Shown here piece by piece: positions 33,613 to 51,880 of a DNA stretch of 64,000 nucleotides. The notes below the pieces were generated by a model, which had not been told where the DNA came from, did not search any database, and worked only from the letters and a program-made list of their open reading frames with translations. Position 1 is the first letter of the stretch, and every line of letters starts with the position of its first letter. Both the position numbers and the translations under genes were made by a program. Origin of the DNA: Planctomycetota bacterium (lineage in GTDB: Bacteria; Planctomycetota; JACOTG01). The DNA lies in contig JACOTG010000048.1 in the NCBI GenBank assembly GCA_016178505.1, forward strand, positions 5,110 through 69,109, given 5' to 3'.

Positions 33613-34806
33613 ATGCAAGCAATCCTGATGCGTGGCCTGACGAACTGGTACGCACGCGTGCAGCAGATGCGGGCGCTCCGAGGCATTCATTCGGCGCGAG
33701 AACTCCATTCGATCATCGAGCGCGAGCGAGCTCGCGTCGATCGCAATTCGCACGAGTTCGCGCTCATCGTTTTCGAGTTCGCGCCGGAAGCGACCGACGA
33801 CAGGTCGCTTTCGCGATTGGCGTTCGTGCTCGCCCGACGGGTTCGGTCCACGGACGAAGTGGGATGGTTCGACGGACATCGCATCGGCGTCGTGTTGCCT
33901 TATACGTCCGCGGCAGGTGCCTGGAATCTCGCGGACGAGATCTGCGGCAAGGCCGTCGAGATCGGGAAAGTCGCGCGGCCCAAATGCACCGTCTACACCT
34001 ATCCGAACGCGGACGTGAACGGACGGAACGGAATGTCGTCACACAATCGAATGCCGGAGGTGTGGCCCGAAACGCGATCGATTACGGCGCGCAACCGGCG
34101 GCGATTCGAGACTCCCCCGGGTTACGTGGCGTTCGCGGCTGCCAGCGATTCCGTGGATCACGCACCCGCTCGACCCGTGTCGGAACTTCAGCGACTTCTC
34201 GTGCATCCGCTCCCGGGTTGGAAGCGGGTCGTCGATGTCGTCGGTGCCGCCATCGCACTGGTCGCTTTCTCGCCCTTGATGCTCGTTGTTGCCCTGCTCA
34301 TCAAGCTGACGTCGCCCGGCGCGGTCATCTTCAAGCAGAAACGCGCAAAGGAGTGCGGCGAGCCGTTCACCTTCTACAAGTTCCGCACGATGTACGCGGA
34401 CGCCGAGAAGCGAAAGCAGGAGCTGCTCAGCCAGAACGAGCAGACCGGTCCCGTCTTCAAGATGCGAAACGATCCCCGCGTGACGCCGATCGGCCGGCTG
34501 CTGCGGGAGACCAGCATCGACGAGCTGCCGCAACTGTGGAACGTGCTCAAGGGCGACATGACGCTCGTCGGTCCGCGGCCGCCGACCCTCGACGAAGTCC
34601 CGCAGTATGAACACTGGCAACGGCGCCGCCTCTCGATCACACCTGGGATCACCTGCATCTGGCAAGTCAGTGGACGGAACGAAATCGGCTTCGAAGACTG
34701 GATGAGGTTGGACATTCGATATGCCGAAGCGCGGTCGCCTCTGCTCGATCTCGCGATTCTCTCCCGGACGGTCGTTGCCGTGCTCTCGCGCAGAGGCGCC
34801 TGCTGA
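33613..34806 (+). CDS. polyprenyl-phosphate sugar-1-phosphate transferase (bacterial sugar transferase, WbaP/EpsZ-like) with an extra N-terminal regulatory-like domain
   Basis: C-terminal VIFKQKR...FYKFRTM...PRVT..G..LR..S.DELPQL..VL.G.M.LVGPRP signature of bacterial sugar transferases. About 190 aa of N-terminal extension and one transmembrane helix. Confidence 0.8.
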   Translation: MQAILMRGLTNWYARVQQMRALRGIHSARELHSIIERERARVDRNSHEFALIVFEFAPEATDDRSLSRLAFVLARRVRSTDEVGWFDGHRIGVVLPYTSAAGAWNLADEICGKAVEIGKVARPKCTVYTYPNADVNGRNGMSSHNRMPEVWPETRSITARNRRRFETPPGYVAFAAASDSVDHAPARPVSELQRLLVHPLPGWKRVVDVVGAAIALVAFSPLMLVVALLIKLTSPGAVIFKQKRAKECGEPFTFYKFRTMYADAEKRKQELLSQNEQTGPVFKMRNDPRVTPIGRLLRETSIDELPQLWNVLKGDMTLVGPRPPTLDEVPQYEHWQRRRLSITPGITCIWQVSGRNEIGFEDWMRLDIRYAEARSPLLDLAILSRTVVAVLSRRGAC

Positions 34807-34862: not shown

Positions 34863-36551
34863 GTGATCGGGGGTGGCGGCGCGGCCACCGCAGCCGCTCT
34901 CGCCGCGCACGAGGCGGGCTCCCGCGTTCTCCTCGCGGTGAAGGGTCGTTTCGGCGTCCCGGGCGGGCGCGGCGCCGGCGCGACCTCGAACCCGATCGCC
35001 GACTTCTGGACGATCCGTACCGTCGGCCCCAAGGGCGGGCTCTTCAACACACCGGACGCCGTTCACGCGGACATGCTCCAGACGGGGCTCGGCATGGCGG
35101 ATCCGGTCCTGTGTCGCGTCTTCGTGGACGAGATCGGCGACACTCTGCGCCGCCTCGACGACATGGGCCTGCGTTTCCGGAGCAAGATGCTTGCGACCTT
35201 GTCGGCCAACTCCGCGGCGGGAGGAACGAACGGCATCGTTGCGACACAGAAAGCGCTGATCCACGACGCCGATATCCCGGTCCTCGAGCAAGCCAACGTG
35301 GTCGACCTGATCGTGAGTGGCGGCCGGTGCGTCGGCGCCTTGGGAGTCGACGACCTGGGAGAGCCGTTCGTGATCGAGGCCGGAGCCGTCGTCCTCGCCA
35401 CCGGAGGAGTGGGCCAGCTCTTCCAGTGGAGCTTCAATCCGCCGGGGAACACGGGGGACGGTTACGCCATGGCGCTGCGGGCGGGAGCCGAGCTGTTCAA
35501 CATGGAGTTCATGCAGCAGGGTCTTGCGACGACGTGGCCGACGCAGGCGATCGTGATGCTCTACGAAGTGGACGAGCCGTACCGACTGGTGAACGCCAGT
35601 GGTCGATCGTTCGTCGAGTCGTACCTGCCGTCCGGTGTCGAACTTCGCGCCGTCACCCGTTCGAAGTCACATCATTGGCCGGTGAGCTGTCGCGACGAAT
35701 CGATCCATCTCGACCGCGCGATCAAAGCGGAGGCACTCGCCGGGCGCGCGACGGCGAACGATGCCGTTCTCCTCGACTTGTCCGCCGTGGATCGTGGGTT
35801 CGAGCCGGAGCTGTTCGTGAAGTTCATGCTGTCGAAGGGAATCGACGTCAAGCGCGACCTCGTGCACGTTCAGGTCCACCACCACACGAGCAACGGCGGC
35901 GTGCGAGTCGACGCCGACGGCGAGACGCGCGTCGCCGGTCTCTTCGCGACGGGCGAAACGATCGGTTGGCAGGGCGCCGATCGGCTCGGCGGCACGATGC
36001 TCGGCGGATCGCAGGTCTTCGGCCGGCGAGCCGGCGCGAAGGCCGCACGCGCGAGCGCGGCGCGCCCGGCCGTGACGCTCGGCGCCGCCGCCGCCGATCC
36101 GCTCATCGATCGCATTCGGTGCCTTCGAGAAGCGTCGGGTCGGGTTCGGCCCTCTGAACTCCGGCTCGGACTGCAGCGGACGCTCTGGGAAACGCTTCTC
36201 GTGGAGAAGGACGTGGAATCGCTTGCTCGCGCCCGCTCCTTCCTCGCGGAGGATCGCGATCGGCTGGAGGCGGACGTTGCGATCACGGAGCCCGGAGATC
36301 TCGTGCTCGCGCTCGAGCAGCGAAACCTCCACGATGTCGCCGAGGCGATCGTCGAGGCGGCGTCGGCTCGCACCGAGAGCCGCGGCAGCCACTATCGGAG
36401 CGATTACCCACGTCGCGACGACGCGAACTGGATGACGAACCTGTTCGCCTCGCATGTGAACGGCGAGCTTTCGTTGCGACGCGAATGGGTCGCGCGCGAG
36501 CACGGATGGACGGATCGTCCCGGCGACGTGCGGATCAAGCCCTGGGGTTGA
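34863..36551 (+). CDS. FAD-dependent oxidoreductase, fumarate reductase/succinate dehydrogenase/L-aspartate oxidase flavoprotein family
   Basis: FAD-binding GGGGAATAAALAAHEAG. RSHHWP...ESRGSHYRSDYP C-terminal motifs typical of the FRD/SDH/NadB family. The start is uncertain: the in-frame DVLVIG lies upstream of the first GTG. Confidence 0.65.
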   Translation: MIGGGGAATAAALAAHEAGSRVLLAVKGRFGVPGGRGAGATSNPIADFWTIRTVGPKGGLFNTPDAVHADMLQTGLGMADPVLCRVFVDEIGDTLRRLDDMGLRFRSKMLATLSANSAAGGTNGIVATQKALIHDADIPVLEQANVVDLIVSGGRCVGALGVDDLGEPFVIEAGAVVLATGGVGQLFQWSFNPPGNTGDGYAMALRAGAELFNMEFMQQGLATTWPTQAIVMLYEVDEPYRLVNASGRSFVESYLPSGVELRAVTRSKSHHWPVSCRDESIHLDRAIKAEALAGRATANDAVLLDLSAVDRGFEPELFVKFMLSKGIDVKRDLVHVQVHHHTSNGGVRVDADGETRVAGLFATGETIGWQGADRLGGTMLGGSQVFGRRAGAKAARASAARPAVTLGAAAADPLIDRIRCLREASGRVRPSELRLGLQRTLWETLLVEKDVESLARARSFLAEDRDRLEADVAITEPGDLVLALEQRNLHDVAEAIVEAASARTESRGSHYRSDYPRRDDANWMTNLFASHVNGELSLRREWVAREHGWTDRPGDVRIKPWG

Positions 36552-37944
36552 GGGCGGTCGCGCGGGGACTCGATGTGTCTTCCGTCTTGACGATCCTCGT
36601 GAGATCGATCGAATCGAGGATGCTTCGCGGCACGGTGTTCCTCACGATCGGTCGCTTCGGCGATAGGGCCACGGTCGCATCGACTCCCATCTTCGCGGTC
36701 CGGCCGTCGGCCGAGTCGCACGACGGATCGAGCGGCGTGCCGACGCGATCCGGCCGAACGACGACGTCTCGATCCGGTTGAACGTGGAGGCCGATCGCGT
36801 TGAGCACTTGGCGCGGATCGTTCACGTCGACTTCCGCGTCGACCACGACGACGTGCTTCACGTAGACGTCGCTGTCGAGGAGCGCGTCGATGACCCTCAT
36901 TGGTTCGGCGTCGTCGGACTTGCGCATCGCGACGAACACGGTGAGGGGCGCGGTCGTCTTCACGCGCTCGACGCCCGGCGCGGCCGCCCTCGCGGTCTTC
37001 ACGAGGTGGCGCTCCATCCCGAGGAGCGGAAGCACCAAGTGCTCGAGATGACCGCTCACGATGTCCTGGAACACGGGACTTCGTCTCGAGGTGATCGCTT
37101 GCACGTGAAGCACGGGAGTGCTCATCGGTCCCGTTGCGTACCCGGTGAATTCTCCAAAAGGCCCCTCGGAGATTCGTTCACCGGGGGGAACGACGCCTTC
37201 GAGGACGAGTTCGGCATTCGCGGGGACCTCGAGCGTCGGTTGCGTGACGCAGCGCACGACACCGAGCGGCTCACGCAGGAGGCCTCCGATCACGTCGAAC
37301 TCCTCGACGTCCGTCGCGCCCGTGAACAATGCGCCGAGCGACCACGCTGGATGAGCGCCGATGAACGCCGCAACTGGCATCGGTCGGCCGACCGCCTCGT
37401 GCTTGAGGTAAATACCGTGGAGGTGTTTGCCGTGGGCCATGTAGAGCGCCGCGAGGTCGCGGCCCGCGATCATGAGCCGGTGATAGCTGAGGTTCGTTCG
37501 GCCGGTCTCCGGGTCGCGAGCGGCGACGATCGCGGCCGTCACGTAAGGGCTCGGCGCATCGTGCTCGTGGTAGATGAGCGACGGAAACGATCCGAGGTCG
37601 ACCGCGGGACCGCGTCGAACGATCTCGTGGACCGGGCCGTCGGCCGCCAGTTCCGGTCGGATCGGGTTTTGGCAGCCATCCTCGTAGCGGCGCGAGAGCT
37701 CGTTCGGATTGCACCGGAGAGCGAGCGAAAGTCGTCCGAGCGATCCGCAAACGTTCGACACGAGCGGCATGTCGCACCCGGCGACGCGATGAAACATGAC
37801 GATCGGTGATCGATGCGCGGCTTCGAGTTTGACGACGGTCGCCGCCGTCTCGAACCGCGGACTCACTTCGTGCTCGATGTCCACCAGATCGGACGGGCGC
37901 TCGCGACGAACGTCGGCAAGGAACCCGCGAAGGTCGCGGCTCAC
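36535..37944 (-). CDS. UbiD-family (prenylated-FMN-dependent) decarboxylase
   Basis: 469 aa with family-wide similarity. GTG start overlaps the upstream stop (GTGA). Confidence 0.8.
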   Translation of the reverse strand: MSRDLRGFLADVRRERPSDLVDIEHEVSPRFETAATVVKLEAAHRSPIVMFHRVAGCDMPLVSNVCGSLGRLSLALRCNPNELSRRYEDGCQNPIRPELAADGPVHEIVRRGPAVDLGSFPSLIYHEHDAPSPYVTAAIVAARDPETGRTNLSYHRLMIAGRDLAALYMAHGKHLHGIYLKHEAVGRPMPVAAFIGAHPAWSLGALFTGATDVEEFDVIGGLLREPLGVVRCVTQPTLEVPANAELVLEGVVPPGERISEGPFGEFTGYATGPMSTPVLHVQAITSRRSPVFQDIVSGHLEHLVLPLLGMERHLVKTARAAAPGVERVKTTAPLTVFVAMRKSDDAEPMRVIDALLDSDVYVKHVVVVDAEVDVNDPRQVLNAIGLHVQPDRDVVVRPDRVGTPLDPSCDSADGRTAKMGVDATVALSPKRPIVRNTVPRSILDSIDLTRIVKTEDTSSPRATALNPRA

Positions 37945-39524
37945 GGCTGAGCCATGGCTTGTACGTCCGGACCGCCGCCAGCGTGCTTCGCTAGCTGCCG
38001 GCGATCCACTTTTCCAGATGCCGTCTTGGGCAGCTGATCGACGAACCGGACCTCGCGTGGTGCGCGAACGAACGGAAGAACTTTCAAGCAGTGTGCGAGG
38101 ATTTCGTCGTCGCTCACCGACTGGTTCCGCGCGCGGACGACGAACGCAAGGATGCGCTCGCCGAGCAGTCGATCGGGCACGCCGACCACCGCGGATTCCG
38201 AGACCGCCCGGTGCGTCGCGATCACGTTCTCGATCTCACGGGGGAAGACGCGTTCGCCAGCGCTCTTGATCAACTCGGACTTTCGGCCGACGAGGTAGAG
38301 GTATCCGTCCTCGTCGAGCCATCCCATGTCGCCGGTGTGAAGTCGTCCCACTTCGTCGATTCGAGGCGACGTGTCCGATTCGTTCGCGACGTACCCGCGC
38401 ATGACGTTCCGCCCCGTCACGGTCACCTCGCCGATTTCGCGAGCGCGGAGCAACGTGTTGTTCTCGGAGAGGATCTCGACGTGAACGCCCGGAATCGGCC
38501 GTCCCACGGATCCGCGTCGCAGCGCGACCTCGGACGGCCCGAGGTGAGTCACGCGCGGCGACGCCTCAGTGAGACCGTAGGCTACGTGAATCGCCACTCC
38601 GGGCAGGCTCGCCTCGAGGTCTCTCAAGACGGCCGGCGCGACTCCGCCTCCGGTCACGAGCACATAGCGCAGATCGGGAAGCGGCGTGTCGCGCAGCCCG
38701 CCCCGTTCCATCAAAGCGACGAAGTGATACGGCACGCCGGAGAAGCCGCTGACGTGGTGCTCCACGATGTCGCGCACGACTTGGCGTGGGAAACGAAAGT
38801 CGGTGGAAAACGCCATCGTTCCGCCGATCCAGGTGTGCATGAGCAGCTGCATTCGTCCGTGAATGAAGTGGAGCGGCACGACCACGAGGATGCTGTCGTC
38901 GCTCCCGAGCGGCATTCTCTCGTTGGCGGCATGTAGGTTCGAGCTGAGATTCTCGTGTGAGAGCTGTACGCCCTTCGGAGTGCCGGTCGTGCCCGAGGTG
39001 TAGACGATCATCGCCACGTCCGATTCGGTTGCCTGGGGAGACGCAGGGTCCTCGGACTCCGTCGCGTCGATTTCGTCGAGCGCATGGATCGACATCGATG
39101 AAAAAGTCGACGCCGGAGAATCCAGCGGAGCTTTGTCGGTGAAGACGACGCGTGGCAATGCGGCGCCCGCGCCCGAGTCCACGATCTGTTGAAGCAAGCG
39201 TTGCGAGATGACGATCGCGCGCGGTCGGCATTCGGCGAGGAGCGACTGGATGGCTGCCTGGCTCGCGACGGTCGGGACGTCCACCGAGACGGCGCCGCGC
39301 TTCAGGATTCCCCAGAAGTAGACGACTGCCGCTGGAGCGTTTTCGTGCAAGATCGCCACGCGATCCCCCGTGCCGATGCCGAGGCGACGAAGTCGAGCGG
39401 CGACTTTTCCACTCTTCTCCGCGAGCGTCGCAAAGGAGATGCGCTCGTCCGGAAACGCAAGGGCAATTTTCTCCGGGAAACGCTCCGCGGATTCCTCCAG
39501 AAAGTCGGGAATGATCTGGCTCAT
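37941..39524 (-). CDS. AMP-dependent synthetase/ligase (acyl-CoA or acyl-ACP ligase)
   Basis: IVYTSGTTGTPKGVQLSHEN (A3), YGLTE, GDMGWLDEDGYLYLVGR motifs. The start is Met42 of the six-frame ORF and overlaps the ACP stop (ATGA). Confidence 0.8.
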   Translation of the reverse strand: MSQIIPDFLEESAERFPEKIALAFPDERISFATLAEKSGKVAARLRRLGIGTGDRVAILHENAPAAVVYFWGILKRGAVSVDVPTVASQAAIQSLLAECRPRAIVISQRLLQQIVDSGAGAALPRVVFTDKAPLDSPASTFSSMSIHALDEIDATESEDPASPQATESDVAMIVYTSGTTGTPKGVQLSHENLSSNLHAANERMPLGSDDSILVVVPLHFIHGRMQLLMHTWIGGTMAFSTDFRFPRQVVRDIVEHHVSGFSGVPYHFVALMERGGLRDTPLPDLRYVLVTGGGVAPAVLRDLEASLPGVAIHVAYGLTEASPRVTHLGPSEVALRRGSVGRPIPGVHVEILSENNTLLRAREIGEVTVTGRNVMRGYVANESDTSPRIDEVGRLHTGDMGWLDEDGYLYLVGRKSELIKSAGERVFPREIENVIATHRAVSESAVVGVPDRLLGERILAFVVRARNQSVSDDEILAHCLKVLPFVRAPREVRFVDQLPKTASGKVDRRQLAKHAGGGPDVQAMAQP

Positions 39525-39781
39525 GGCTGTGCCATTCGACCGTTCAGGTTCTTCTCGACGTACGCCCTGAGATTTCGAACCGAGCCGAAGTTCTCGGGCA
39601 CGAGGTCGTCGACAGCGACTTGAAATGAGAAATGCTCCTCGATCCACACGACGAGCTCCATCATCGCCGTGGAGTCGAGCATCCCCGAGCCCACGAGGTC
39701 TGTGGTCGCCGTGACGTCCGGCCGTGGGCCGGAGACGAGCTTTTCATGGATGAATCGCATGATGGTGTCTTCGATGTTCAT
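39521..39781 (-). CDS. acyl carrier protein
   Basis: 86 aa. GMLDSTAMMELV phosphopantetheine-attachment motif. The start overlaps the upstream stop (ATGA). Confidence 0.7.
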   Translation of the reverse strand: MNIEDTIMRFIHEKLVSGPRPDVTATTDLVGSGMLDSTAMMELVVWIEEHFSFQVAVDDLVPENFGSVRNLRAYVEKNLNGRMAQP

Positions 39782-40932
39782 GCGGCGACTCCTCCGAAGT
39801 GCTGGAAAACGAGAGGGGGCGAAACGGCGAAGCGCGCAAGCATGTCTTCTCGAACGCGGACGCCGAGTCCCGTCATCGTTACCGACGCGGGTCCGTCGGC
39901 AGTGCGCGAGGTCGAGGGGGTCTCGACGACGTCTTCGGTGAGCAGAAAACGGCTCTGGCCCTTGCCGTCGAGGAAGTCGAAGCCCTCGACTCGGCTGCCG
40001 AAGATTTCGGAAGCACGGGAGAGGATCCCCGTCTCGCCGACGAGCGTTCCGAGATGACAATCGATTCCGGCATCGCGAGCGACTCGGACGAGTGCGAGCG
40101 ACGCGACGAACCCGCCGCACTTGGCGAGGCGGATGTTGAACGCATCGGCTGCGCGCTCTGCGATCAGCCGATGCGCATCATCGAGCGTGCACACCGACTC
40201 GTCGGCCGTCACCGCGAGCCCCGTGCGCTCCCGAACGAGTCTCATGCCGGCGAGATCGGTCGCGGGCACCGGCTGTTCCACGAACTCGATGTCGATGTGC
40301 TGCATGGCTTGCAGCCGCTCGATCGCGACGCGGGCGGACCACGTGCCGTTTGCATCGACGCGGAGGCGAGCCGTCTTGCCGAGCGTCTTGGAAATGATCT
40401 CGAGGCGGCGCACGTCGTCGTCGCAGCCGATCTTCACCTTTACGTGCCGGCGGCCCGCGAGCCGCACGAGCGTGCAGTGCCACACCAGTTCGTCCGTCGG
40501 AACTTCGAACCCGATCACGACGCCCGGCTCAAGAGAACCCGAGCATGTCGGACCGAGCACGTCGCCGGCATCGAATCCGATCGCCCGTCCGGCGACGTCG
40601 AGCGCCGCCATCTCGAACCCCGTGAACGTCGCAAGCGCGCGGCCGGCGTCGCGAAGGTCGCCTTCGATTGCAGCGACGACGTCTTTCGAGTCCTCGAGTC
40701 TCCGTCCGAGCCACCTGCGGGCCATCGTCGGGCCGTGGTCATGGAGCACGCTCTGGATCGTCTCTCCCGTCAGGTACGGACGCGGCAAGATCTCGCCGAA
40801 GCCACGCTCGCCGGAGTCGGACGTGATCGCGACGATCACGGCGTCGGTCTGACGCCGTTCGTGCGACGCATGCTGGAACGGCGCCCGCAACGGGATCTGG
40901 ATGACGTGTAGTTCAACGTCTCGAATCTGCAT
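39778..40932 (-). CDS. enolase-superfamily enzyme, mandelate racemase/muconate-lactonising/o-succinylbenzoate-synthase-like
   Basis: KVKIG...RLRVDANGTW...IDIEFVEQP metal-ligand pattern of MR/MLE. Confidence 0.75.
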   Translation of the reverse strand: MQIRDVELHVIQIPLRAPFQHASHERRQTDAVIVAITSDSGERGFGEILPRPYLTGETIQSVLHDHGPTMARRWLGRRLEDSKDVVAAIEGDLRDAGRALATFTGFEMAALDVAGRAIGFDAGDVLGPTCSGSLEPGVVIGFEVPTDELVWHCTLVRLAGRRHVKVKIGCDDDVRRLEIISKTLGKTARLRVDANGTWSARVAIERLQAMQHIDIEFVEQPVPATDLAGMRLVRERTGLAVTADESVCTLDDAHRLIAERAADAFNIRLAKCGGFVASLALVRVARDAGIDCHLGTLVGETGILSRASEIFGSRVEGFDFLDGKGQSRFLLTEDVVETPSTSRTADGPASVTMTGLGVRVREDMLARFAVSPPLVFQHFGGVAA

Positions 40933-42577
40933 GAATCCTTTCCGCGATCTCGAACTCGTGGAGAACGCTCGCGTTTCGGGTCAAGTGAATGGGTTTGAGC
41001 TGGTCGGGGCTTGCGCCGTTCATCACGCGCCGGCGCTGCCATGCCGCATAACCACCCGGTTCCACGATCCAGACTTCCGGCGGTCCAAGGCGCAAGGACG
41101 CGCGCTTCGTTGCGTACTCGATGTTCTGACGCTCGATCTCGCGGTCGAGCGTCCCAGGGAAACTCGCCAGACGTTGCGGCTGCGCTGGAGACGCGACCTC
41201 GACGAGAAGCACGTAGTGGGGAAACGGTTCGGCAGCGGGGAAGAGAGTGAACGATTCGAGGTCGATTCCGATCGCGCTTGCGCTCGCAGAAACGGCTTCG
41301 GTCACTTGGTCTTCCGTGAGCTTCTCGCCGGTCATCGAGCACGTGGCGCCTGCACGGTGGAGAAACTCGACGATCGGAGTCGCACCACGGAATCCGTGAA
41401 CCCGCACGACGTCGCCGATGTGGTAACGATACAGCCCTGCGGACGTGCTCAGGATCACGACGTATCGACGGCCCACTTCGAGCTCGTGAGCGAGACGGAC
41501 CTCCGGTTCGCTGCAATCGACTTCTTCCTCGGCGACGAACTCGAAGAAGTGAGTTTCCGTCGCGAGCACTCCGCCGGGCCCTTCATCGACGTCGTCGAAC
41601 GGGATCGCAATGACCCCTTCGGATGCCATGCAAACGTAGTCGCGCTGCGCCGCCCCTCCGATGTACGGCTCGAGCAGCCGGAGATACGGACGCAGCATCG
41701 GGCTCCGCCAGCACACGACCAGGGCAAGCGACAGCCAGATCTCGCTCGCGATCAGGCGCGGGCCGTCGTCGTGCAGCAGCGCTTCGAGCTCACGGGCGCG
41801 CGTTGGATTGGCAGGACATCTTGCCGCGACGAGATCGCGAACGGAGTCGTCGACGTTCACGGTGGCGCCGAGGCCCCCGCGCGCCACGTCTTCGATGAGT
41901 GAGTCGGCGAAGTCCGAGAGTTTCTGCAGGAAAACGAGCAGCGTGCTCGGATGGAGCGCCATGAGGAGTGGGAGGTCCTCTTCGAGGAGGATCCGAGCGG
42001 TCGCATACGCGCGAGCGTCGACGTCGACGATCGAGCCGATCTCGCGCGGCACGAGCGGCGTGCGGCGAAGCGACAATCCCGAGCTCCACGCGGACCAGAA
42101 AGCGCTCTCGGAGCTGCACGGGATGCCGCCCCACGTGAGCGTCGGTGCGCCCGATTCCACGAGGCTCATCACCATCGTCGAGCGATTCACGCTCGGGTGC
42201 CGCTCGAAGACGCGGCTCCAGTAAGTACCGAATGCACGCCACTTGTCCCGAATCAACGAAGCGGTGACGGGGACGCGCTTCGGCTCGCCGGTCGATCCAC
42301 TCGTGAGAAAGAAATGGCGCACCGGCTCGGCGACGAGCACGCTCGCTTCGCCGCGCGCCATGCGATCGACGTCCGCGCGGATGTTCTCGTAGCGGACGAT
42401 CGGAACGGCGCGCTGGTAATCGCGGACCGAGCGAACCACGCGGAACTGGTGCCGACACCCGTATTCGCAGTCTCGATTCGGCTCGACGATCCGTTTCAAC
42501 AGGCACTCCTCTTGAAGGATGTCCGGGCGATCGAGGCCATTCCTCGAGGCGTCGTGCGGCGCGCGAGTGGTCGTCAC
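40913..42577 (-). CDS. GH3-family acyl-acid amido synthetase (adenylate-forming)
   Basis: VPIVRYENIRADVDRMARGEASVLVAEPVRHFFLTSGSTGEPKRVPVT matches the GH3 N-terminal signature. GTG start with RBS GGAGGA overlaps the upstream stop (GTGA). The six-frame ORF extends further upstream into the neighbouring gene. Confidence 0.75.
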   Translation of the reverse strand: MTTTRAPHDASRNGLDRPDILQEECLLKRIVEPNRDCEYGCRHQFRVVRSVRDYQRAVPIVRYENIRADVDRMARGEASVLVAEPVRHFFLTSGSTGEPKRVPVTASLIRDKWRAFGTYWSRVFERHPSVNRSTMVMSLVESGAPTLTWGGIPCSSESAFWSAWSSGLSLRRTPLVPREIGSIVDVDARAYATARILLEEDLPLLMALHPSTLLVFLQKLSDFADSLIEDVARGGLGATVNVDDSVRDLVAARCPANPTRARELEALLHDDGPRLIASEIWLSLALVVCWRSPMLRPYLRLLEPYIGGAAQRDYVCMASEGVIAIPFDDVDEGPGGVLATETHFFEFVAEEEVDCSEPEVRLAHELEVGRRYVVILSTSAGLYRYHIGDVVRVHGFRGATPIVEFLHRAGATCSMTGEKLTEDQVTEAVSASASAIGIDLESFTLFPAAEPFPHYVLLVEVASPAQPQRLASFPGTLDREIERQNIEYATKRASLRLGPPEVWIVEPGGYAAWQRRRVMNGASPDQLKPIHLTRNASVLHEFEIAERIHADSRR

Positions 42578-43509
42578 GATCGTTCCTCCATCGAAGAGAG
42601 GGGACGACCCGAGTGGGGCCGGAGCAAGTCGTCGATCCACGAGAGGACGCGAATGGAAACGGCTTCCGGCTCGTCGAGCTGCATGGCGTGGGCGCAATCG
42701 CACGCAGCGATCGTGACGGGAAGCTCGGAGAGGCTTCGAAACGCGCGCGCGGTCCGCGCGTTGGCGACGACCTCGTCGCGCGAGGCCAGGAGCACGAGCG
42801 TCGGCTGCTGCAAGCGCGCGAGGCCCAAGACCGCATCGATTCCCAGGCGCCGCATCGCGCGGAAAAAGCGCGGCGTGAATGCGCGAAGTCGCCGCGCGTC
42901 GGGCAGGATGAACGATTTCAGCGCAGGTCCCGTCGTGAACTGCTCCTCGCGAATCGGACTCACCAGGCAAGGCGCGTCGGCGGGACTCGAGCGCATGGCG
43001 GAATCCTGCGATCGCATCGCACCGAGGATCGCCTCCGATGGGAAAAGACCGGGTGCCAACAGTGCGAGGCCCGCGATGCGCGGACCGAACTCGAGTGCGG
43101 CGACAACGGCAAGCGCAGCGCCCCAACACCAACCCACGACGACGAGCGGGGCCGTCGTCGCTTCGGTCTCGCGGCGGAGAATCCGATCCAGATCATCGAC
43201 GAGGATTCGCGATGACGGCGCGTCTCCGCGTGCCTCGTCGTTCAGCCCGGAGCCGCGGCGGTCGGCTCCGACGACGTGCAGCCCCGCGCGTGCAAGGCGC
43301 CCGGCCAGCGGCTCGAACCAAAGGGAATGGCTCATGACGCCGTTCACGAGCGCGACCGTCGCCCGCCGCGCGGCTGCCGGCCATACCCGATAGTGCAGCC
43401 GATAGCCATCCGAGGAGACGACGCATCGAACTTCGGCTTCGGCCGGCCCTTCGCCTGGGACGAGCGCGGGCAACGCCGGGCTCGATGGACTAGACCGTAG
43501 TATTGCCAC
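42574..43509 (-). CDS. alpha/beta-hydrolase-fold protein
   Basis: GWCWG-type nucleophile motif and acid/His residues. The start is ambiguous: GTG at 43509 overlaps the SDR 3' end, and a TTG at about 43470 is the alternative. Confidence 0.55.
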   Translation of the reverse strand: MAILRSSPSSPALPALVPGEGPAEAEVRCVVSSDGYRLHYRVWPAAARRATVALVNGVMSHSLWFEPLAGRLARAGLHVVGADRRGSGLNDEARGDAPSSRILVDDLDRILRRETEATTAPLVVVGWCWGAALAVVAALEFGPRIAGLALLAPGLFPSEAILGAMRSQDSAMRSSPADAPCLVSPIREEQFTTGPALKSFILPDARRLRAFTPRFFRAMRRLGIDAVLGLARLQQPTLVLLASRDEVVANARTARAFRSLSELPVTIAACDCAHAMQLDEPEAVSIRVLSWIDDLLRPHSGRPLSSMEERS

Positions 43510-44278
43510 CGCAGACGTTCCATGCTTCCCCGGTAATGCCGCTCGACGCCGGCGAGGCGAGGAAGAGCGCCAGGGAAGCAACTTCGAAAGCCGTAATGAG
43601 ACGACGTTGCGAATCGTCTCCGAGAACCTGATCGATGTGTTCTCGGTCGGATCGACCGAACATTTTCCCGCGCGCCTCCATCGTTTCGTGGACGAGGTCC
43701 GTCTCCACGTGCCAGGGGCAGATGGCGTTGACCGTGATGCCGAGCTTTGCGGTCTCCAACGCGACGGACTTCGTGAATCCGATGACCGCGGCCTTCGAAG
43801 CCGCATAGGCGCTGTTGAATGCCGCTCCGACCTTCCCGGAGACGGAGGATACGTTGATCACGCGTCCCGACCGCGCCTTGATCATCGGGCGGATCGCGGC
43901 CTTCGTGCACCGGTAGACGCCGAAGACGTTGGTCTCGATCACGCGCCGCCACTCGTTCTCGTCGGACATGATCAAGTTGGCCACGTAACTCACACCCGCG
44001 TTGTTGACCAGGATGTCGATCCTGCCGAACTCGTCCAGCGCGGCCGTGACCATTCGATCGACGGCGCTTTGGTCGGTCACGTCCGCCACGATCGAGAGCA
44101 CGGCTCCGCTACCGGTCGAACGAACCCTGTTCGCCGTTTCCTCCAGGGGCTCTACGGACCGCGACGACAAGACCACGGCGGCCCCCTGTTGGGCGAACAG
44201 CAGGGCGATCTCCCGTCCGATGCCGCGTCCGGCTCCGGTGATGACGGCGACCTTGCCAGTCAGTTCAGCGCTGCTCAC
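43490..44278 (-). CDS. SDR-family oxidoreductase (FabG-like)
   Basis: TGAGRGIGREIA...NNAG...YAASKAAV catalytic YxxxK. GTG start with RBS GGAGGA chosen over the upstream Met, which would add a Pro/Arg-rich extension. Confidence 0.75.
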   Translation of the reverse strand: MSSAELTGKVAVITGAGRGIGREIALLFAQQGAAVVLSSRSVEPLEETANRVRSTGSGAVLSIVADVTDQSAVDRMVTAALDEFGRIDILVNNAGVSYVANLIMSDENEWRRVIETNVFGVYRCTKAAIRPMIKARSGRVINVSSVSGKVGAAFNSAYAASKAAVIGFTKSVALETAKLGITVNAICPWHVETDLVHETMEARGKMFGRSDREHIDQVLGDDSQRRLITAFEVASLALFLASPASSGITGEAWNVCGGNTTV

Positions 44279-44400
44279 GGATCCTCCAGCCCTCCGCCTC
44301 GTGGCACTTCTTGCAAACCTCGGTCCCGGTCGCGGCGGGTTGCAGGGGCGCGGCACGGCGCGTGCGTTTCACGTCGCGGGATAGACAGGAAGGTTTGTCG

Positions 44401-45579
44401 ATGCCGGAAAGTCTGTCGGCCGCCGATCCGACTCGGGCGGATGGAGTCGCACGATGGCAAGAAATGCCAGCGGTGCGCGCATTTTACGAGTCGGACGTGC
44501 CGGAGGTGGCCGACCTCTTCGTCCGATCGTTTCGCCCCGGAGGGTCTGCTTCCGCGGCGGCGGTCGCGGCGTACACGCGACGAGCTTACTTCGCGAATCC
44601 GTGGCGCGACGATGCCTACCCGTGCCTGGTTCACGAGGGGCGCGACGGCCGCATCGACGGGTTCCTCGGAGTCATTCCCCGTCCCGTGCGGTTCCGCGGA
44701 GCGGCGATGACCGCCGCGGTCGCGGGCAATTTCATGGTTCGCGCCGACGCGTCCGGACGGCGCGATCCTCTCGCTGCGGTGAACCTCGTGAGGGCTTTCT
44801 TCGCAGGCACTCAGGACGTGTCGTTGACGGACACCGCCAACGATCTATCGCAGTCGATCTGGCAGGCGTGCGGCGGCGTCACGGCGCGCATGCACAGCTT
44901 CACCTGGATCCGGCCGATTCGACCATTTCGACTGGCCGTCGAAGAGCTTGCGAAACGCGGCGACCGTTCGCCGCTCCACGCGCTCGGACGCATGGTTTGT
45001 CCGTTCGCCGACCCGTTCGCTGCGCGGATGGCAGTCCGCCCGCTTCGTCGCGCTGCGGACGAATGCGTCGTCGACGAGCTTCGGGCGAGCGATCTGCGAA
45101 AAGCGTTGTCTGCATGGTGCCGGCACGAACTCTCTCCGGACGACGACGAGGCGTCGCTCGAATGGCTGCTCGAAGAAGTCGGTCGAAAGAACGGGGCGGG
45201 GATCGCTCGGCGATCGCTCGTTCGAGATGCGCACGGTGTTCCGATCGGATGGTACGTCTTCTACCTGAAGCCGGGCGGCATCAGCGAAGTCTTGGGGCTC
45301 GGCGCCGATCCGCGTCACGCGGACCGCGTCGTCTCGCGGCTGATCGTCGACGCGGCGAAGGAGGGCGCGATTGCGCTGCGCTGCCGCTCCGACCCTGAGC
45401 TGGTGACGTTTCTCTCTCGGAGATACTGCTTCTTCTACAACGCCGGCGCTTGGGTGCTCGCGCACTCACGCCACACGGACGTGCTCAACACGATTCACTC
45501 CGGGAGCGCGCTTCTGGGCGGCCTTCACGGCGAGACCTGGACGCGCTTCACCGGAGATTCGTTCGACGAGGAAGTGTGA
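44401..45579 (+). CDS. hypothetical protein, possibly a GNAT/FemAB-like acyltransferase fold, divergent from the GH3 operon
   Basis: 392 aa. RBS GGAAGG. Weak two-lobed resemblance to GNAT-fold acyltransferases. Low confidence. Confidence 0.35.
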   Translation: MPESLSAADPTRADGVARWQEMPAVRAFYESDVPEVADLFVRSFRPGGSASAAAVAAYTRRAYFANPWRDDAYPCLVHEGRDGRIDGFLGVIPRPVRFRGAAMTAAVAGNFMVRADASGRRDPLAAVNLVRAFFAGTQDVSLTDTANDLSQSIWQACGGVTARMHSFTWIRPIRPFRLAVEELAKRGDRSPLHALGRMVCPFADPFAARMAVRPLRRAADECVVDELRASDLRKALSAWCRHELSPDDDEASLEWLLEEVGRKNGAGIARRSLVRDAHGVPIGWYVFYLKPGGISEVLGLGADPRHADRVVSRLIVDAAKEGAIALRCRSDPELVTFLSRRYCFFYNAGAWVLAHSRHTDVLNTIHSGSALLGGLHGETWTRFTGDSFDEEV

Positions 45580-48109: not shown

Positions 48110-48688
48110 TCAGCGGATGTTCCGTGCACGCGAGATGTAAGAATTGCCGTCCGACTTTGGTCGAGAGAATTTTTTTCGAAGCGGGTCATTCGGCGTGTGA
48201 GTCGTCGCTCGAGCGCCGTCGATGAAACCGCGCAGCGCTGAAATCAATCGATCGGACGCCTGAGGTGCGAGGGCGCCGGAAGCGGTGAGCGTCGATAGTT
48301 CGTCGAGACGCGCATCGAGCTCGCGCTCGTCGAGCGCCACGGCAACCCATCCGAACTCGCGGAAGATTCGCGCCGTGGCGACTTGGTGATCGTTGCGCGT
48401 TTCTTGCAGGTCTCCGCGCCGCGGCATCACGAGGATCGGCTTTCCCATTTCGCGCGCCGTGATGATCGATCCCATTCCAGCGTGAGCGACGATGGCGGTC
48501 GCCGACCGAACCTTCTCGCGGAACTCCGATTGATCGAGGAATTTCGTCCATGCGATGTGTCGAGGATGCCAGTCGGTCGGCCCAATCTGGGCGAACGCAT
48601 CGCTGCGACCCTGTCGCAACGCCCACTCGTCGACGCCGCGCACGAGGCGATCAAAGGGCATTTGAGCGCCAACCGTCACGAAGATCAC
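48110..48688 (-). CDS. Alg13-like glycosyltransferase catalytic subunit (Glyco_tran_28_C, PssE-like)
   Basis: VIFVTVGAQMPFDRLV...AHAGMGSIITAREMGKPILVMPRR. GTG start overlaps the upstream stop (GTGA). Confidence 0.6.
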   Translation of the reverse strand: MIFVTVGAQMPFDRLVRGVDEWALRQGRSDAFAQIGPTDWHPRHIAWTKFLDQSEFREKVRSATAIVAHAGMGSIITAREMGKPILVMPRRGDLQETRNDHQVATARIFREFGWVAVALDERELDARLDELSTLTASGALAPQASDRLISALRGFIDGARATTHTPNDPLRKKFSRPKSDGNSYISRARNIR

Positions 48689-49161: not shown

Positions 49162-49264
49162 AGTTCCAAAGACCTCGACTTCGGCCCAAGGATCGACTCG
49201 GGCAAGGCGTTTGCTCCGCGGAGTCGGCGTGCTTGGCCTATCCCAGGGAAGCTATGGGAATCCC

Positions 49265-49963: not shown

Positions 49964-50048
49964 GGCCTGGACAAGAGGCGAATCACGTGCGATCGGAACG
50001 ATCCGAGAGTCGAATGGAAGGCGAGGCGACGACCTCGCTCTGCGAGCC

Positions 50049-51873: not shown

Positions 51874-51880
51874 TTGCGCC

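Follow-up and report, generated by a model that had tools for sequence, protein, structure and literature searches.

An eight-gene GH3-UbiD cassette conserved across bacterial phyla and its possible role in polysaccharide decoration

What might be made by an operon that joins a GH3-family amido synthetase, a UbiD-family decarboxylase, and an acyl carrier protein (ACP)? We addressed this question for a 64-kb stretch of planctomycete DNA (i.e., the window). No published pathway accounts for the gene set, and a full-text literature search returned no paper that mentions both GH3 and UbiD. The reading that we favor, with slightly less than even confidence, is that the genes use a dedicated carrier protein to assemble an acyl unit, not a sugar, that contains an amide and is handed to a Wzx/Wzy-type polysaccharide or lipid-linked repeat unit. 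The enzyme classes and active-site residues used in this proposal come from the data; we infer the substrates, via distant homologs, and the order of the steps.

Limits and conservation of the cassette

The window carries seven co-directional minus-strand open reading frames at 36535-44278, which confirms the seven-gene observation of an earlier, sequence-only reading. Each of its seven domain calls was confirmed by Pfam. That reading had extended the block to 44356, the start of the longest possible short-chain dehydrogenase/reductase (SDR) frame, but GTG 44278, with a GGAGG Shine-Dalgarno sequence and in agreement with the public call, is the likelier start. Our preferred gene limits agree with the public gene calls. 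Direct reading of the sequence revealed GTGA at the α/β-hydrolase/GH3 and ANL ligase/UbiD junctions, ATGA at both ends of the ACP gene (toward the enolase-superfamily gene and the adjacent ligase gene), and a 20-nt overlap between the GH3 and enolase-superfamily genes. Start/stop overlap at every junction thus held for five of six. The SDR/hydrolase junction, however, depends on the start codon chosen (a 20-nt overlap with GTG 43509, or a 16-nt gap with TTG 43473 of the public annotation) and is ambiguous because the hydrolase N terminus is not conserved among homologs. Such overlaps are commonplace in high-GC operons and are nothing special alone. Promoter-like and terminator-like motifs showed no excess within the seven-gene block.

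The seven genes are co-conserved, but the unit has an eighth member. It consists of genes for the SDR, a Cys-α/β-hydrolase, GH3, an enolase-superfamily enzyme, the ACP, an ANL ligase, UbiD, and an FrdA-like flavoprotein. The last gene (34863..36551, plus strand) is convergent to the operon and shares 17 nt with the 3' end of UbiD. It had been regarded as a flanking gene, together with a divergent gene on the other side; both are present, but a flavoprotein 61 to 69% identical to that of the window (mean, 64%) follows UbiD in 15 loci, and at that mean identity it is the most conserved member of the cassette. Most loci have it in the same orientation as UbiD; the window and locus L005 are the only ones with an inverted copy.

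Of 44 loci that have a GH3 ortholog, 26 contain at least five of the eight genes, and 25 of these 26 share the gene order of the window. The 26 loci belong to Planctomycetota, Myxococcota, and Acidobacteriota. A further look-up found the genes in a related arrangement in a Gemmatimonadales MAG (Gemmatimonadota), which brings the carriers, bacteria from soils and sediments, to at least four phyla. Because the same genes recur in the same order in 25 of 26 loci of three phyla, the arrangement is far beyond chance. Within the available flanks, SDR and UbiD were each present in 22 of the 26 loci and the flavoprotein in 15; both UbiD and the flavoprotein are apparently absent from L007 and L016. 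The Sorangium cassette has additional UbiX, PhyH, and 4HBT thioesterase genes, and L086 encodes a UbiD-PhyH fusion. A Planctomycetes MAG encodes a protein 100% identical to the window GH3. GH3 orthologs (47 to 55% identity) also occur outside the cassette, and GH3 substrate specificity may therefore not be cassette specific.

Enzyme families and active sites

The SDR (43490..44278, minus strand, as for all seven operon genes; 262 aa), encoded by the first gene of the operon, is of the classical type (adh_short, 1e-62). Among NCBIfam models, it comes nearest to 3-hydroxybutyrate dehydrogenase (244.5 bits; cutoff, 258) and FabG, and among solved structures to 3-hydroxyacyl-CoA dehydrogenase, 3-hydroxybutyrate dehydrogenase, and FabG. 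GH3 (40913..42577; 554 aa), of the ATP-dependent acyl-acid amido synthetase family, matched the Pfam N, M, and C domains at 1e-49, 2e-20, and 6e-20. Its solved relatives are plant GH3 structures only, and its nucleotide motifs (TSGSTGEPK, SEG, and YRYxxGD) do not vary within the clade. The stand-alone ACP (39521..39781; 86 aa; PP-binding, 7e-07) has its Ser in an LDS motif and lies nearest the models for the cispentacin ACP AmcB (40.8 bits; cutoff, 80) and the OlsHI-associated ACP. The ANL ligase (37941..39524; 527 aa), of the adenylate-forming ANL superfamily, matched AMP-binding (2e-79) and the C-terminal domain and is presumed to load the ACP. Its NCBIfam matches were a long-chain-fatty-acid-CoA ligase subfamily (375 bits; cutoff, 476), an exosortase-A-associated ligase (337; cutoff, 592), and OSB-CoA ligase (280; cutoff, 556), and among solved structures it is closest to oxalate-CoA ligase (5IE0; 220 bits), OSB-CoA ligase, 4CL, and malonyl-CoA synthetase. 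We counted the relatives that use oxalate, OSB, and malonate in favor of small-acid loading.

The hydrolase (42574..43509, alternatively 42574-43473) matched Hydrolase_4 (5e-28) and, faintly, DLH (E = 0.0037). Its nucleophile elbow, GWCWG, aligned with the GxSxG of solved hydrolases, which places Cys at the nucleophile position; this Cys is kept in 22 of 23 orthologs. NCBIfam matches were all subthreshold (OlsI; hydr1_PEP also weak). It is a candidate acyl-thioester transferase or thioesterase.

OlsH, the one characterized bacterial GH3, produces an N-acyl amino acid (N-acyl ornithine), and OlsI of the same ornithine-lipid pathway is an α/β-hydrolase O-acyltransferase (PMC12493201). Together with the intact motifs, this precedent was counted for amide formation. 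It also invites an alternative that we think improbable, namely, that the cassette is an OlsH/OlsI paralogue system whose product is a membrane lipid of the N-acyl amino acid type. A fatty acid, which may be 3-hydroxylated, would be joined by GH3 to the nitrogen of an amino acid, and the Cys-hydrolase would O-acylate the product from ANL-loaded acyl-ACP; as unlikely a scheme for the remainder has the SDR, enolase-superfamily enzyme, flavoprotein, and UbiD alter the head group or chain and a neighboring MOP-family flippase export the lipid. Such a lipid would fit the presence of GH3, α/β-hydrolase, and ACP in one operon, the nearest or near-nearest rank of the Ols models in NCBIfam, the fatty-acid top match of the ligase, the likeness of the SDR to 3-hydroxyacyl dehydrogenases, the wax-ester synthases beside the L086 cassette, and the planctomycete source. 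All of the Ols models, however, fell far below their cutoffs (OlsH, 131.5 versus 620 bits; OlsI, 22.5 versus 385; ACP, 36.7 versus 130), so that membership was rejected. Moreover, the nearest solved relatives of the ligase use small dicarboxylates, and three further enzymes (UbiD, flavoprotein, and enolase-superfamily enzyme) do not, to our knowledge, take part in any amino-lipid pathway described so far. Beyond the flippase, glycosyltransferases, a Wzy polymerase/ligase, sugar aminotransferases, and deacetylases lie nearby in three phyla. The earlier statement that no textbook pathway matches stands for the full cassette, with a partial precedent for GH3, α/β-hydrolase, and ACP in a system of which the cassette is not a member (PMC12493201).

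The enolase-superfamily enzyme (39778..40932; 384 aa) belongs to the MLE subgroup (MR_MLE_C, 9e-37). Its best solved relatives are L-Ala-D/L-Glu epimerase (1JPM), entry 2P88, and dipeptide and N-acylamino-acid epimerases or racemases; these relatives and the overlap of its gene with GH3 were counted for the proposal. The KxK motif and three metal ligands are kept, but the equivalent of YkfB K268 is Arg (NIRLAKCGG) in 23 of 23 orthologs and 117 of 120 homologs. The family assignment in the description "racemase/lactonising enzyme" was upheld; a racemase role is doubtful because Arg replaces the second catalytic Lys throughout the family.

UbiD (36535..37944; 469 aa), of the prFMN-dependent decarboxylase family, matched the Pfam N, core, and C domains (UbiD, 8e-54) and exceeded the cutoff of TIGR00148 (263.8 versus 244.85), and all specific models were below theirs. 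It falls in an HmfF-like branch: its best solved relatives, 6H6X and 6H6V (240 bits; all others, ≤129 bits), are presumably HmfF. The catalytic Arg and both Glu residues are invariant in 19 of 19 orthologs (i.e., an intact Glu-Arg-Glu network), as is a His aligned with PDB residue 296, which we assign as the His that gives HmfF its furan specificity. The network and the HmfF comparison follow published work (PMC7976604, PMC11350588). UbiX had been supposed to be encoded elsewhere; our search covered the 64-kb window, where no homolog was found even at E ≤ 10. Models of the MenC, MenE, UbiD-proper, and SCO4490 types were all far below their cutoffs, and the genes were thus not placed in menaquinone or ubiquinone synthesis, as a domain search might have done. 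Neighborhood and domain searches alike support an uncharacterized, co-conserved acyl-conjugate pathway outside textbook routes.

The stand-alone flavoprotein, of the FrdA/SdhA/NadB type (at least 562 aa), matched FAD_binding_2 (6e-35) and Succ_DH_flav_C (1e-20), and no Fe-S subunit gene lies next to its gene. Upstream of the annotated GTG, the same frame encodes ETDVLV, which is conserved at the N terminus, and the true start is probably in this upstream part. Equivalents of FrdA R287, H355, and R390 are kept, but the position of H232, presumably the distal-carboxylate ligand, is Gln-Gly in 119 of 120 homologs. Judged from these residues, the protein appears to retain only one of the two carboxylate sites.

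Catabolism, i.e., a variant of aromatic or furan-acid degradation through an AroY/HmfF-like decarboxylase, a muconate-cycloisomerase-like enzyme, a dienelactone-hydrolase-like Cys hydrolase, a reductase, and a CoA ligase, is very improbable. It would fit the top NCBIfam match of the enolase-superfamily enzyme (muconate/chloromuconate cycloisomerase), the Cys nucleophile and faint DLH match of the hydrolase, and the proximity of UbiD to 6H6X/6H6V. That top match, however, reached only 133.8 bits against a cutoff of 334.95, and the enzyme lacks the second catalytic Lys. Conservation does not extend to any ring-cleavage dioxygenase, regulator, or transporter, and the genes themselves include two biosynthetic hallmarks, an ACP and a GH3 amide synthetase, and lie within biosynthetic polysaccharide loci.

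Polysaccharide context and proposed pathway

From 33.6 to 64 kb, the window is a Wzx/Wzy-type polysaccharide locus. A polyprenyl-phosphate glycosyl-1-phosphate (priming) transferase (33613..34806, plus strand; Bac_transf, 3e-64; EPS_sugtrans TIGR03025, 280.8 bits; cutoff, 295.55) is encoded immediately before the flavoprotein, in the same orientation; after its stop codon at 34806 come a GGAGGAG Shine-Dalgarno sequence and the flavoprotein frame. In L043, a copy with 56% identity adjoins the cassette. Public gene calls and Pfam placed in the remainder (48110..63999) an Alg13/14-like split glycosyltransferase, two polysaccharide deacetylases, GT2, GT1, an AsnB-like amidotransferase, a Wzx flippase, an Acetyltransf_6 protein, and an FrhB-like protein with a pyruvyl transferase. 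Myxococcota flanks encode Wzx, GT1, and a class-III aminotransferase divergent from the SDR, and Acidobacteriota flanks encode GT1, Wzy_C, Wzx, Asn_synthase, DegT, Poly_export, and a deacetylase. Raw counts over 118 flanking ORFs were highest for Aminotran_3, which occurred 9 times, followed by Polysacc_synt_3 with 8, Polysacc_synt with 7, and Glycos_transf_1 with 6. Genes of the Wzx/Wzy polysaccharide type dominate the flanks, and the cassette is usually within polysaccharide-synthesis loci. No polysaccharide genes were visible around the Sorangium and L086 cassettes; the latter has wax-ester synthases and LodA as neighbors. No sugar-attaching transferase is conserved with the cassette across phyla.

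These neighbors could be incidental if the product were a diffusible signal, antibiotic, or enzyme inhibitor (e.g., a vinyl- or enamide-bearing N-acyl amino acid), a reading to which we give little weight. In α/β-hydrolases of the CmaE/SyrC type, the nucleophile is Cys. In favor of such a product, these hydrolases shuttle acyl groups in nonribosomal peptide synthetase (NRPS) pathways (PMC8748450), and UbiD/UbiX pairs form the terminal alkenes of tautomycetin and 9-methylstreptimidone (PMC11350588). GH3 orthologs adjoin NRPS genes in Kofleriaceae and Methylomirabilia MAGs, a distant variant of the GH3/SDR/hydrolase/enolase-superfamily quartet has a ketosynthase and two L-amino-acid ligases as neighbors, and near the Sorangium cassette there is a LysE exporter but no glycosyltransferase. 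On the other hand, polysaccharide genes recur in three phyla with different families in each, which makes inherited synteny hard to invoke; the flavoprotein gene of the window lies directly behind the priming transferase; and neither an exporter nor a regulator is conserved with the cassette. Of the earlier "acyl-conjugate or small-molecule pathway," the acyl-conjugate part stands, but the context, including the position of the flavoprotein gene, points to glycan decoration over a free small molecule.

For decoration of a glycan, we propose the following route. The ANL ligase would adenylate a small carboxylic acid, plausibly dicarboxylic or an acidic amino acid, and load it as a thioester on the ACP. 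The leftover free carboxylate end would be reworked by the SDR (3-oxo to 3-hydroxy or the reverse), the flavoprotein or the enolase-superfamily enzyme, and UbiD. An α,β-unsaturated acid could arise by Cα-Cβ desaturation at the flavoprotein, with its one retained carboxylate site, or by α-proton abstraction and elimination at the enolase-superfamily enzyme, whose single-Lys, Arg-containing site would suit elimination or isomerization better than two-base racemization. The HmfF-like UbiD, with prFMN from a UbiX encoded elsewhere, might then strip the carboxylate to leave a vinyl, enoyl, or enamide terminus. GH3 would use ATP to form an amide from a carboxylate and an amine (maybe an amino acid or amino sugar); the L-amino-acid ligases beside the quartet variant were counted for this proposal. 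Finally, the Cys-hydrolase may take the acyl group off the ACP as a thioester and pass it to an acceptor, or release it.

The divergent gene (44464..45579, plus strand; 371 aa) is lineage specific and outside the conserved cassette, with a homolog close to the cassette in L005 only. The description "GNAT-like" was correct for family and fold: its product had no Pfam match above threshold, Acetyltransf_9 was matched in 36 of 48 family members, and an AF2 model (pLDDT, 93.7) resembled Eis-like GNATs and N-myristoyltransferases in Foldseek (E, about 3e-12; TM, about 0.55). The modeled tandem-GNAT fold suggests a possible N-acyltransferase.

The cassette and its distribution

The seven co-directional minus-strand genes named in the sequence-only reading are present at positions 36535-44278, and all seven of its domain calls were backed by Pfam. 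They encode an SDR (43490-44278; adh_short, 1e-62), an α/β-hydrolase (42574-43509; Hydrolase_4, 5e-28), a GH3 protein (40913-42577; N, M, and C domains at 169.4, 73.3, and 72.5 bits versus a cutoff of 23.6 bits), an enolase-superfamily MR/MLE enzyme (39778-40932; MR_MLE_C, 9e-37), an ACP (39521-39781; PP-binding, 7e-07), an ANL ligase (37941-39524; AMP-binding, 2e-79), and a UbiD protein (36535-37944; N, core, and C domains). The G+C content of the window is ~65%, and a protein in NCBI on contig JACQFJ010000008.1, from a Planctomycetes MAG, matches its GH3 at 100% identity. The same reading placed an overlap at every junction. This held for five junctions (GTGA, 20 nt, ATGA, ATGA, and GTGA), while the SDR/hydrolase junction was ambiguous: one candidate start codon gives a 20-nt overlap and the other a 16-nt gap. 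Comparison with homologs did not fix that junction, the N termini being unconserved. A scan of the 36- to 45-kb region for promoter and terminator motifs yielded none beyond shuffled expectation, a result that says little about planctomycete promoters.

The FrdA/NadB-like flavoprotein gene on the opposite strand (34863-36551, +) had been regarded as a mere flank. It is instead the eighth member of the cassette and the best conserved one (mean identity, 64%); in other loci it follows UbiD, mostly on the same strand, and it is inverted in the window and in one further locus (L005).

Conservation was surveyed by scanning a GH3 alignment over one genome per GTDB species, which returned 80 loci. 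The window proteins were run against these by tblastn, and GH3 proteins with at least 42% identity (n = 44 loci) were treated as orthologous. The neighborhood survey that had been proposed for GH3, UbiD, and ACP thus showed that the genes recur together: 26 of the 44 orthologous-GH3 loci hold at least five of the eight cassette genes, and the window order SDR-ABH (the α/β-hydrolase)-GH3-MLE-ACP-ANL-UbiD is kept in 25 of the 26. The remaining orthologous-GH3 loci were 6 truncated contigs with two to four of the genes and 12 loci with GH3 alone. Occupancy among the 26 cassette loci was complete for GH3 and MLE (26 each) and reached 25 for ACP, 24 for ANL, 22 each for SDR, ABH, and UbiD, and 15 for the flavoprotein.

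Cassette hosts belong to Planctomycetota, Myxococcota (Nannocystaceae, Paraliomyxa, and Sorangium), and Acidobacteriota (Terriglobales and "Candidatus Angelobacter"), and a separate look-up found the gene set in a Gemmatimonadales MAG. Cultured carriers are Sorangium sp. So ce1335 and So ce1182 and Paraliomyxa miuraensis SMH-27-4. The Sorangium locus (L001; GH3 53% identical) is arranged as GH3-ACP-ANL-SDR-UbiD-PhyH-flavoprotein-hydrolase-MR/MLE-UbiX-4HBT. Cassette homologs were also present on hundreds of metagenomic contigs, and an MLE homolog (P0346) comes from Bradyrhizobium sp. CCBAU 051011. Given its conserved order in three phyla and these hundreds of contigs, the cassette marks a widespread chemistry for which we found no description. 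It is notable for this distribution and for several noncanonical active sites, and its product is uncharacterized.

Accessory genes varied among loci. No UbiX homolog was detected in the 64-kb window at an E value of ≤10; UbiX lies within the cassette in four loci (L002, L036, L039, and L042). PhyH was also missing from the window and occurred in some cassette loci. In one of them (L086, 17196-19574), UbiD and a PhyH-type Fe(II)/2-oxoglutarate dioxygenase form one fused 792-aa protein, which suggests that the two catalyze consecutive steps on one substrate; in Sorangium they are neighboring separate genes. A class III aminotransferase gene is divergent from SDR in 9 to 13 myxobacterial loci. 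The P. miuraensis cassette (L084) is interrupted by a ~5.6-kb insertion (14866-20389) that splits the ANL ligase from UbiD, carries an nSTAND/AAA_16 NTPase, a CHAT-SIR2 protein, and a Transposase_31 gene, and looks like a defense-type island dropped into the operon. A Terriglobales locus (L022) has a PGA_cap gene (CapA-like, poly-γ-glutamate capsule family; 13077-14210) between ACP and the ANL ligase, with a PhyH gene and a DegT aminotransferase gene upstream. An unannotated 380-aa gene, also upstream there, was compared with the divergent GNAT gene of the window and is not its homolog.

Among GH3 orthologs without the cassette, one group lies beside NRPS genes and another in a conserved, housekeeping-looking context; the housekeeping type is sometimes found in a MAG alongside a cassette, as a second GH3 copy. 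MAGs of Kofleriaceae (L087) and Methylomirabilia (L088) carry cassette-less GH3 genes (54-55% identical) next to genes for a tRNA_bind-domain protein, a ~490-aa methyltransferase, and multimodule NRPSs, joined in Kofleriaceae by a type II thioesterase. These loci put the same GH3 clade to a second, distinct use. In a Thermoanaerobaculia MAG (L047, 893-15323), a distant variant of the quartet GH3, SDR, Cys-type hydrolase, and MR/MLE (34-42% identical) clusters with a ketosynthase, a second SDR, and two ATP-grasp L-amino-acid ligases, which replace the ACP, ANL, UbiD, and flavoprotein genes. A reduced set on a 10-kb contig of a Gammaproteobacteria MAG (L089) adjoins an NDP-sugar epimerase/dehydratase gene and comprises a 307-aa unknown protein, an α/β-hydrolase, a methyltransferase, a cassette-type flavoprotein (65% identical), and an SDR, which suggests that flavoprotein, SDR, and hydrolase can form a separable submodule.

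Comparison with known systems

The earlier proposal of an uncharacterized acyl-conjugate pathway was supported: the gene set is co-conserved elsewhere, and the models of known pathways miss their cutoffs. Specific NCBIfam models (MenC/E, UbiD proper, futalosine, muconate, aspartate oxidase, fumarate reductase, Ols, and exosortase-A) all scored far below cutoff; the sole model of the set to pass was that of the UbiD family, TIGR00148 (263.8 versus 244.85 bits). The domain search proposed at the outset therefore gave no support to a menaquinone or ubiquinone assignment. The menaquinone pathway was rejected on its scores (menC, 101.1 versus 200.65 and 80 versus 130.55 bits; menE, 238 versus 330.15 bits; PRK03640, 279.7 versus 556 bits), and MenD, MenF, and MenB-like genes were not among the window Pfam results. 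Also rejected were a ubiquinone/futalosine UbiD (NF008175, 118.4 versus 788 bits; TIGR03701, 182.1 versus 495.9 bits) and a muconate/chlorocatechol module (TIGR02534 on the MLE enzyme, 133.8 versus 334.95 bits).

A partial precedent is the OlsH/OlsI ornithine-lipid pathway of Singulisphaera acidiphila, with its bacterial GH3 and α/β-hydrolase-fold acyltransferase, in which the GH3 protein OlsH makes an amide bond with ATP and without CoA or ACP (PMC12493201). In both OlsH/OlsI (with ACP model NF052616) and the cassette, GH3, α/β-hydrolase, and ACP are encoded together in a planctomycete; with the three in one operon, the cassette has an OlsH/OlsI-type architecture, in resemblance of design only. 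To our knowledge, OlsH (2025) is the only one of the numerous bacterial GH3 proteins with a demonstrated function. True orthology was rejected, all Ols models being far below cutoff: OlsH (NF052613) reached 131.5 versus 620 bits on the window GH3, with its best stretch at residues 276-520, OlsI (NF052614) reached 22.5 versus 385 bits, and the ACP model reached 36.7 versus 130 bits. Unlike OlsH/OlsI, the cassette has no OlsG methyltransferase and has an additional SDR, enolase enzyme, ANL ligase, UbiD, and flavoprotein. An OlsHI-like amino lipid, which the shared architecture would suit, is an unlikely product; the cassette lies in a context of polysaccharide synthesis, whereas that of OlsH/OlsI is lipid synthesis.

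Sets comprising an ACP, an AMP-ligase, and redox enzymes, which build a non-sugar acyl substituent, are found in O-antigen loci, an example being the rfbK-O tetronate genes of Vibrio cholerae O1. Such dedicated-ACP sets in O-antigen and EPS loci have in common with the cassette a carrier, an adenylating loader, and hydrolase-fold and redox enzymes. The exosortase-A-associated set (TIGR03098-03101) is an uncharacterized ligase/ACP/hydrolase set. TIGR03098 was the second-best NCBIfam match of the ANL ligase, at 336.9 versus 592.35 bits, and hydr1_PEP (TIGR03100) reached 19.1 versus 168.45 bits, which places the cassette outside the exosortase-A set. Neither the tetronate nor the exosortase-A set has the GH3, UbiD, FrdA-like flavoprotein, and enolase-superfamily enzyme, all of which the cassette has.

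Like TtnD/TtnC, SmdK/SmdJ, and HmfF, the cassette UbiD is a prFMN decarboxylase with an intact Glu-Arg-Glu in a biosynthetic cluster, and genomes differ, for the cassette as for natural-product UbiD pairs, in whether UbiX is part of the cluster or would be supplied from elsewhere (PMC11350588). However, it belongs to an HmfF-like branch and not to the TtnD/Fdc branch (240 bits versus 92 bits to TtnD), is accompanied by no polyketide synthase, and is paired with an FrdA-like flavoprotein rather than with a TtnF-type dehydratase.

In the full-text literature (subscription journals lying outside this scope), we found no published description of GH3 and UbiD together. Full-text searches on GH3-like BGCs and on GH3 with polysaccharide or uronic-acid amides returned no account of the cassette gene set, and none was found of UbiD in a glycan locus or of UbiD/UbiX with exopolysaccharide. 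The UbiD enzymes that we know of act in quinone synthesis, in the degradation of aromatics, and in a few polyketide pathways, and none belongs to a glycan locus. The cassette enzymes are all from known superfamilies, and accessory acyl-decoration pathways are already known; the cassette ties GH3 and UbiD to a carrier protein, a noncanonical enolase enzyme, and an atypical FrdA-like flavoprotein. The sequence-only reading needs three changes, namely, an eighth gene, the link to polysaccharide loci, and the partial OlsH/OlsI precedent.

Active sites and proposed chemistry

All three domains of the window GH3 (PF03321, PF23571, and PF23572) pass the gathering score, placing it in the GH3 acyl-acid amido synthetase family, and its nucleotide motifs (TSGSTGEPK, SEG, and YRYxxGD) show no variation across the clade. 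Its PDB relatives are plant GH3 structures alone. The nearest solved relatives of the ANL ligase are oxalate-, OSB-, and malonate-activating ligases, the nearest NCBIfam model of the ACP is that of the cispentacin ACP AmcB, and the SDR is nearest to 3-hydroxybutyrate and 3-hydroxyacyl dehydrogenases and FabG. Substrate prediction from sequence for GH3, the ANL ligase, and UbiD gave weak nearest-relative hints and no assignment. From active-site residues whose conservation is seen directly in the data, we infer the functional meanings that follow.

The nucleophile elbow of the hydrolase is GWCWG in 22 of 23 orthologs, with Cys in place of Ser. A Cys nucleophile makes a thioester acyl-enzyme and is typically found in those members of the fold that transfer acyl groups (PHA synthases and dienelactone hydrolase); CmaE/SyrC-type shuttles likewise have a Cys nucleophile. 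CmaE and SyrC transfer acyl groups from one carrier protein to another (PMC8748450). The GxCxG elbow is common to CmaE/SyrC, dienelactone hydrolase, PHA synthase, and the cassette hydrolase, and the sole sequence hint linking the latter to Cys hydrolases is a faint DLH Pfam match (E = 0.0037).

The enolase enzyme is closest to L-Ala-D/L-Glu epimerase, dipeptide epimerases, N-acylamino-acid racemases, and muconate cycloisomerases, with ~30% identity to the MLE-subgroup epimerases and racemases (YkfB, 1JPM; N-succinyl/N-acylamino-acid racemases; OSBS). It keeps KxK on strand 2 and the D/E/D metal ligands, whereas in 117 of 120 homologs an Arg occupies the position of the strand-6 Lys of YkfB-type enzymes (YkfB K268). 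It thus has only part of the MLE-subgroup set (ligands, KxK, and second Lys) and is an enolase-superfamily member with a noncanonical active site. The sequence-only reading had called it a racemase or lactonizing enzyme; the superfamily stands. Because the strand-6 Lys is Arg, the canonical two-Lys 1,1-proton transfer is unavailable, and the replacement argues against a canonical two-base racemase and for a one-base elimination or isomerization. The YkfB-type relatives act at the α-carbon of N-acylated amino acids, which are the product class of GH3.

The Cys hydrolase and the MLE match prompted consideration of a catabolic route for aromatic or furan acids, combining a muconate cycloisomerase, a dienelactone hydrolase, and an AroY/HmfF-type decarboxylase. 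Such a route is highly improbable in view of the accompanying ACP and GH3, the biosynthetic context, and the lack of a ring-cleavage dioxygenase in the cassette at any locus examined.

The flavoprotein has the FAD_binding_2 and Succ_DH_flav_C capping/C-terminal architecture of FrdA, SdhA, and NadB, and equivalents of FrdA R287, H355, and R390 are kept. Where FrdA has H232, 119 of 120 homologs have Gln-Gly; the T244/E245 region differs as well. The protein stands alone: no gene for an Fe-S or membrane subunit lies near it, which, with the loss of H232, sets it apart from FrdA, L-aspartate oxidase, and TfrA. With an incomplete His/Arg set and its best specific models below cutoff (TfrA, 225.9 versus 718 bits; nadB, 165.4 versus 452.75 bits), it did not classify as a fumarate reductase, succinate dehydrogenase, or L-aspartate oxidase. 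In fumarate reductases, H232 and T244 grip the distal carboxylate. Because these residues are altered, the substrate is probably a monocarboxylate of the R-CH2-CH2-COO- or R-CH=CH-COO- type.

The catalytic Glu-Arg-Glu of UbiD, whose role as a network has been described (PMC11350588), is preserved as the Arg of HRLM and the glutamates of EGPFGE in 19 of 19 orthologs. Among solved members, 6H6X/6H6V scored 240 bits and every other one ≤129 bits. The search output gives these entries generic names; we take them to be HmfF, and the invariant UbiD His that aligns with PDB position 296 presumably corresponds to HmfF H297. In HmfF, H297 sets furan specificity (PMC7976604).

Five of the eight cassette enzymes recognize or consume a carboxylate: GH3 and the ANL ligase adenylate one, and the enolase enzyme, flavoprotein, and UbiD act beside a free one. 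We propose that a small diacid or acidic amino acid would be tethered to ACP by the ANL ligase or amide-linked by GH3. The enolase enzyme would abstract an α-proton, the flavoprotein would perform an α,β-desaturation, and UbiD would decarboxylate an α,β-unsaturated or heteroaryl acid; the free carboxylate end would thereby pass through an enoate, formed by oxidation or elimination, to a vinyl, enoyl, or enamide terminus. The Cys-hydrolase would then hand the ACP-bound acyl group to an acceptor, which the context indicates may be a polysaccharide repeat unit. This overall reading of carboxylate-end remodeling, amide formation, and a polysaccharide acceptor is tentative, and we place its probability slightly short of even. 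An N-acyl amino acid intermediate fits the GH3/MLE overlap, the substrates of the MLE relatives, the L-amino-acid ligases of the Thermoanaerobaculia variant (L047), and the OlsH precedent (PMC12493201). A narrower and more speculative scheme, to which we assign a low probability, is a two-step oxidative decarboxylation in which FrdA-like desaturation beside the carboxylate is followed by its removal by the HmfF-like UbiD, converting an N-acyl (acidic) amino acid made by GH3, or a carrier-bound dicarboxylate, to a decoration with a vinyl or enamide end. If true, this two-step reaction would be new and would yield a new kind of polysaccharide decoration; the enolase enzyme with Arg would represent a new active-site solution, and UbiD would be the first known in glycan biosynthesis. 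Each cassette enzyme offers a simple in vitro read-out.

Polysaccharide loci and neighboring genes

The window cassette sits within a Wzx/Wzy-type polysaccharide locus. Besides a priming transferase gene, this locus has genes for glycosyltransferases (Alg13/14-like, GT2, and GT1), a Wzx flippase, two polysaccharide deacetylases, an AsnB-like amidotransferase, an Acetyltransf_6 protein, and a pyruvyl transferase and its FrhB-like partner. Other phyla repeat the polysaccharide theme with other genes. Myxococcota cassettes are flanked by Wzx, GT1, and aminotransferase genes. One set of Acidobacteriota loci has GT1, Wzy_C, Wzx, and Asn_synthase as flanks, and another has DegT, Poly_export, deacetylase, and FkbM methyltransferase. 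Among 118 ORFs flanking the cassette at 17 loci, ranked against one another, Aminotran_3, Polysacc_synt_3, Polysacc_synt, and Glycos_transf_1 came out on top. A non-sugar substituent of a surface polysaccharide is the most likely cassette product; the exopolymers of the carrier groups matter for soil aggregation and biofilms. The Sorangium and L086 cassettes had no polysaccharide context at those loci. A diffusible natural product, against which the polysaccharide flanks elsewhere speak, is unlikely.

Immediately past the stop codon of the priming transferase gene (33613-34806, +), and on the same strand, the flavoprotein frame of the window opens. The annotated GTG start at 34863 drops an N-terminal FAD-fold strand, ETDVLV, that is present in all homologs and is encoded in frame just upstream (as RIHETDVLV). 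No in-frame ATG, GTG, or TTG occurs between this strand and the previous stop, and a Shine-Dalgarno sequence, GGAGGAG, lies at 34811-34817, right after the priming transferase stop. These features suggest a noncanonical start codon (e.g., ACG at 34824 or ATC at 34842) or a sequence error. The N-terminal third of the priming transferase (33613-34220) gave weak GGDEF/diguanylate-cyclase matches (E of ~0.001, far below cutoff) and may be a degenerate regulatory domain.

The divergent gene (44464-45579, +) encodes a 371-aa protein with no significant Pfam match (Acetyltransf_9, 14.5 bits). Its family comprises 1,856 cluster representatives (50% identity) matching at an E value of ≤0.001; Acetyltransf_9 was matched by 36 of 48 sampled members, and the model of the window protein (pLDDT, 93.7) matches Eis-like tandem GNATs and N-myristoyltransferases. 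The label "GNAT-like" given from sequence alone was therefore right. Because the loci that pair this gene with the cassette are all planctomycete, it may be the transferase of that lineage.

Between this gene and the Alg13/14-like glycosyltransferase genes lies one for a 599-aa protein (45621-47420, -) that appears to begin with a signal peptide or hydrophobic stretch and has no Pfam match even at an E value of ≤10. Elsewhere in the window, two very long proteins of ~700 and 1130 aa (22428-24518, -, and 26068-29460, -) carry N-terminal ECF-type sigma-70 regions 2 and 4. In the longer one, the sigma regions are followed by CarboxypepD_reg/transthyretin-like repeats, whereas the shorter one has sigma-domain matches alone; a third protein (20048-22243, +) is rich in CarboxypepD_reg repeats.
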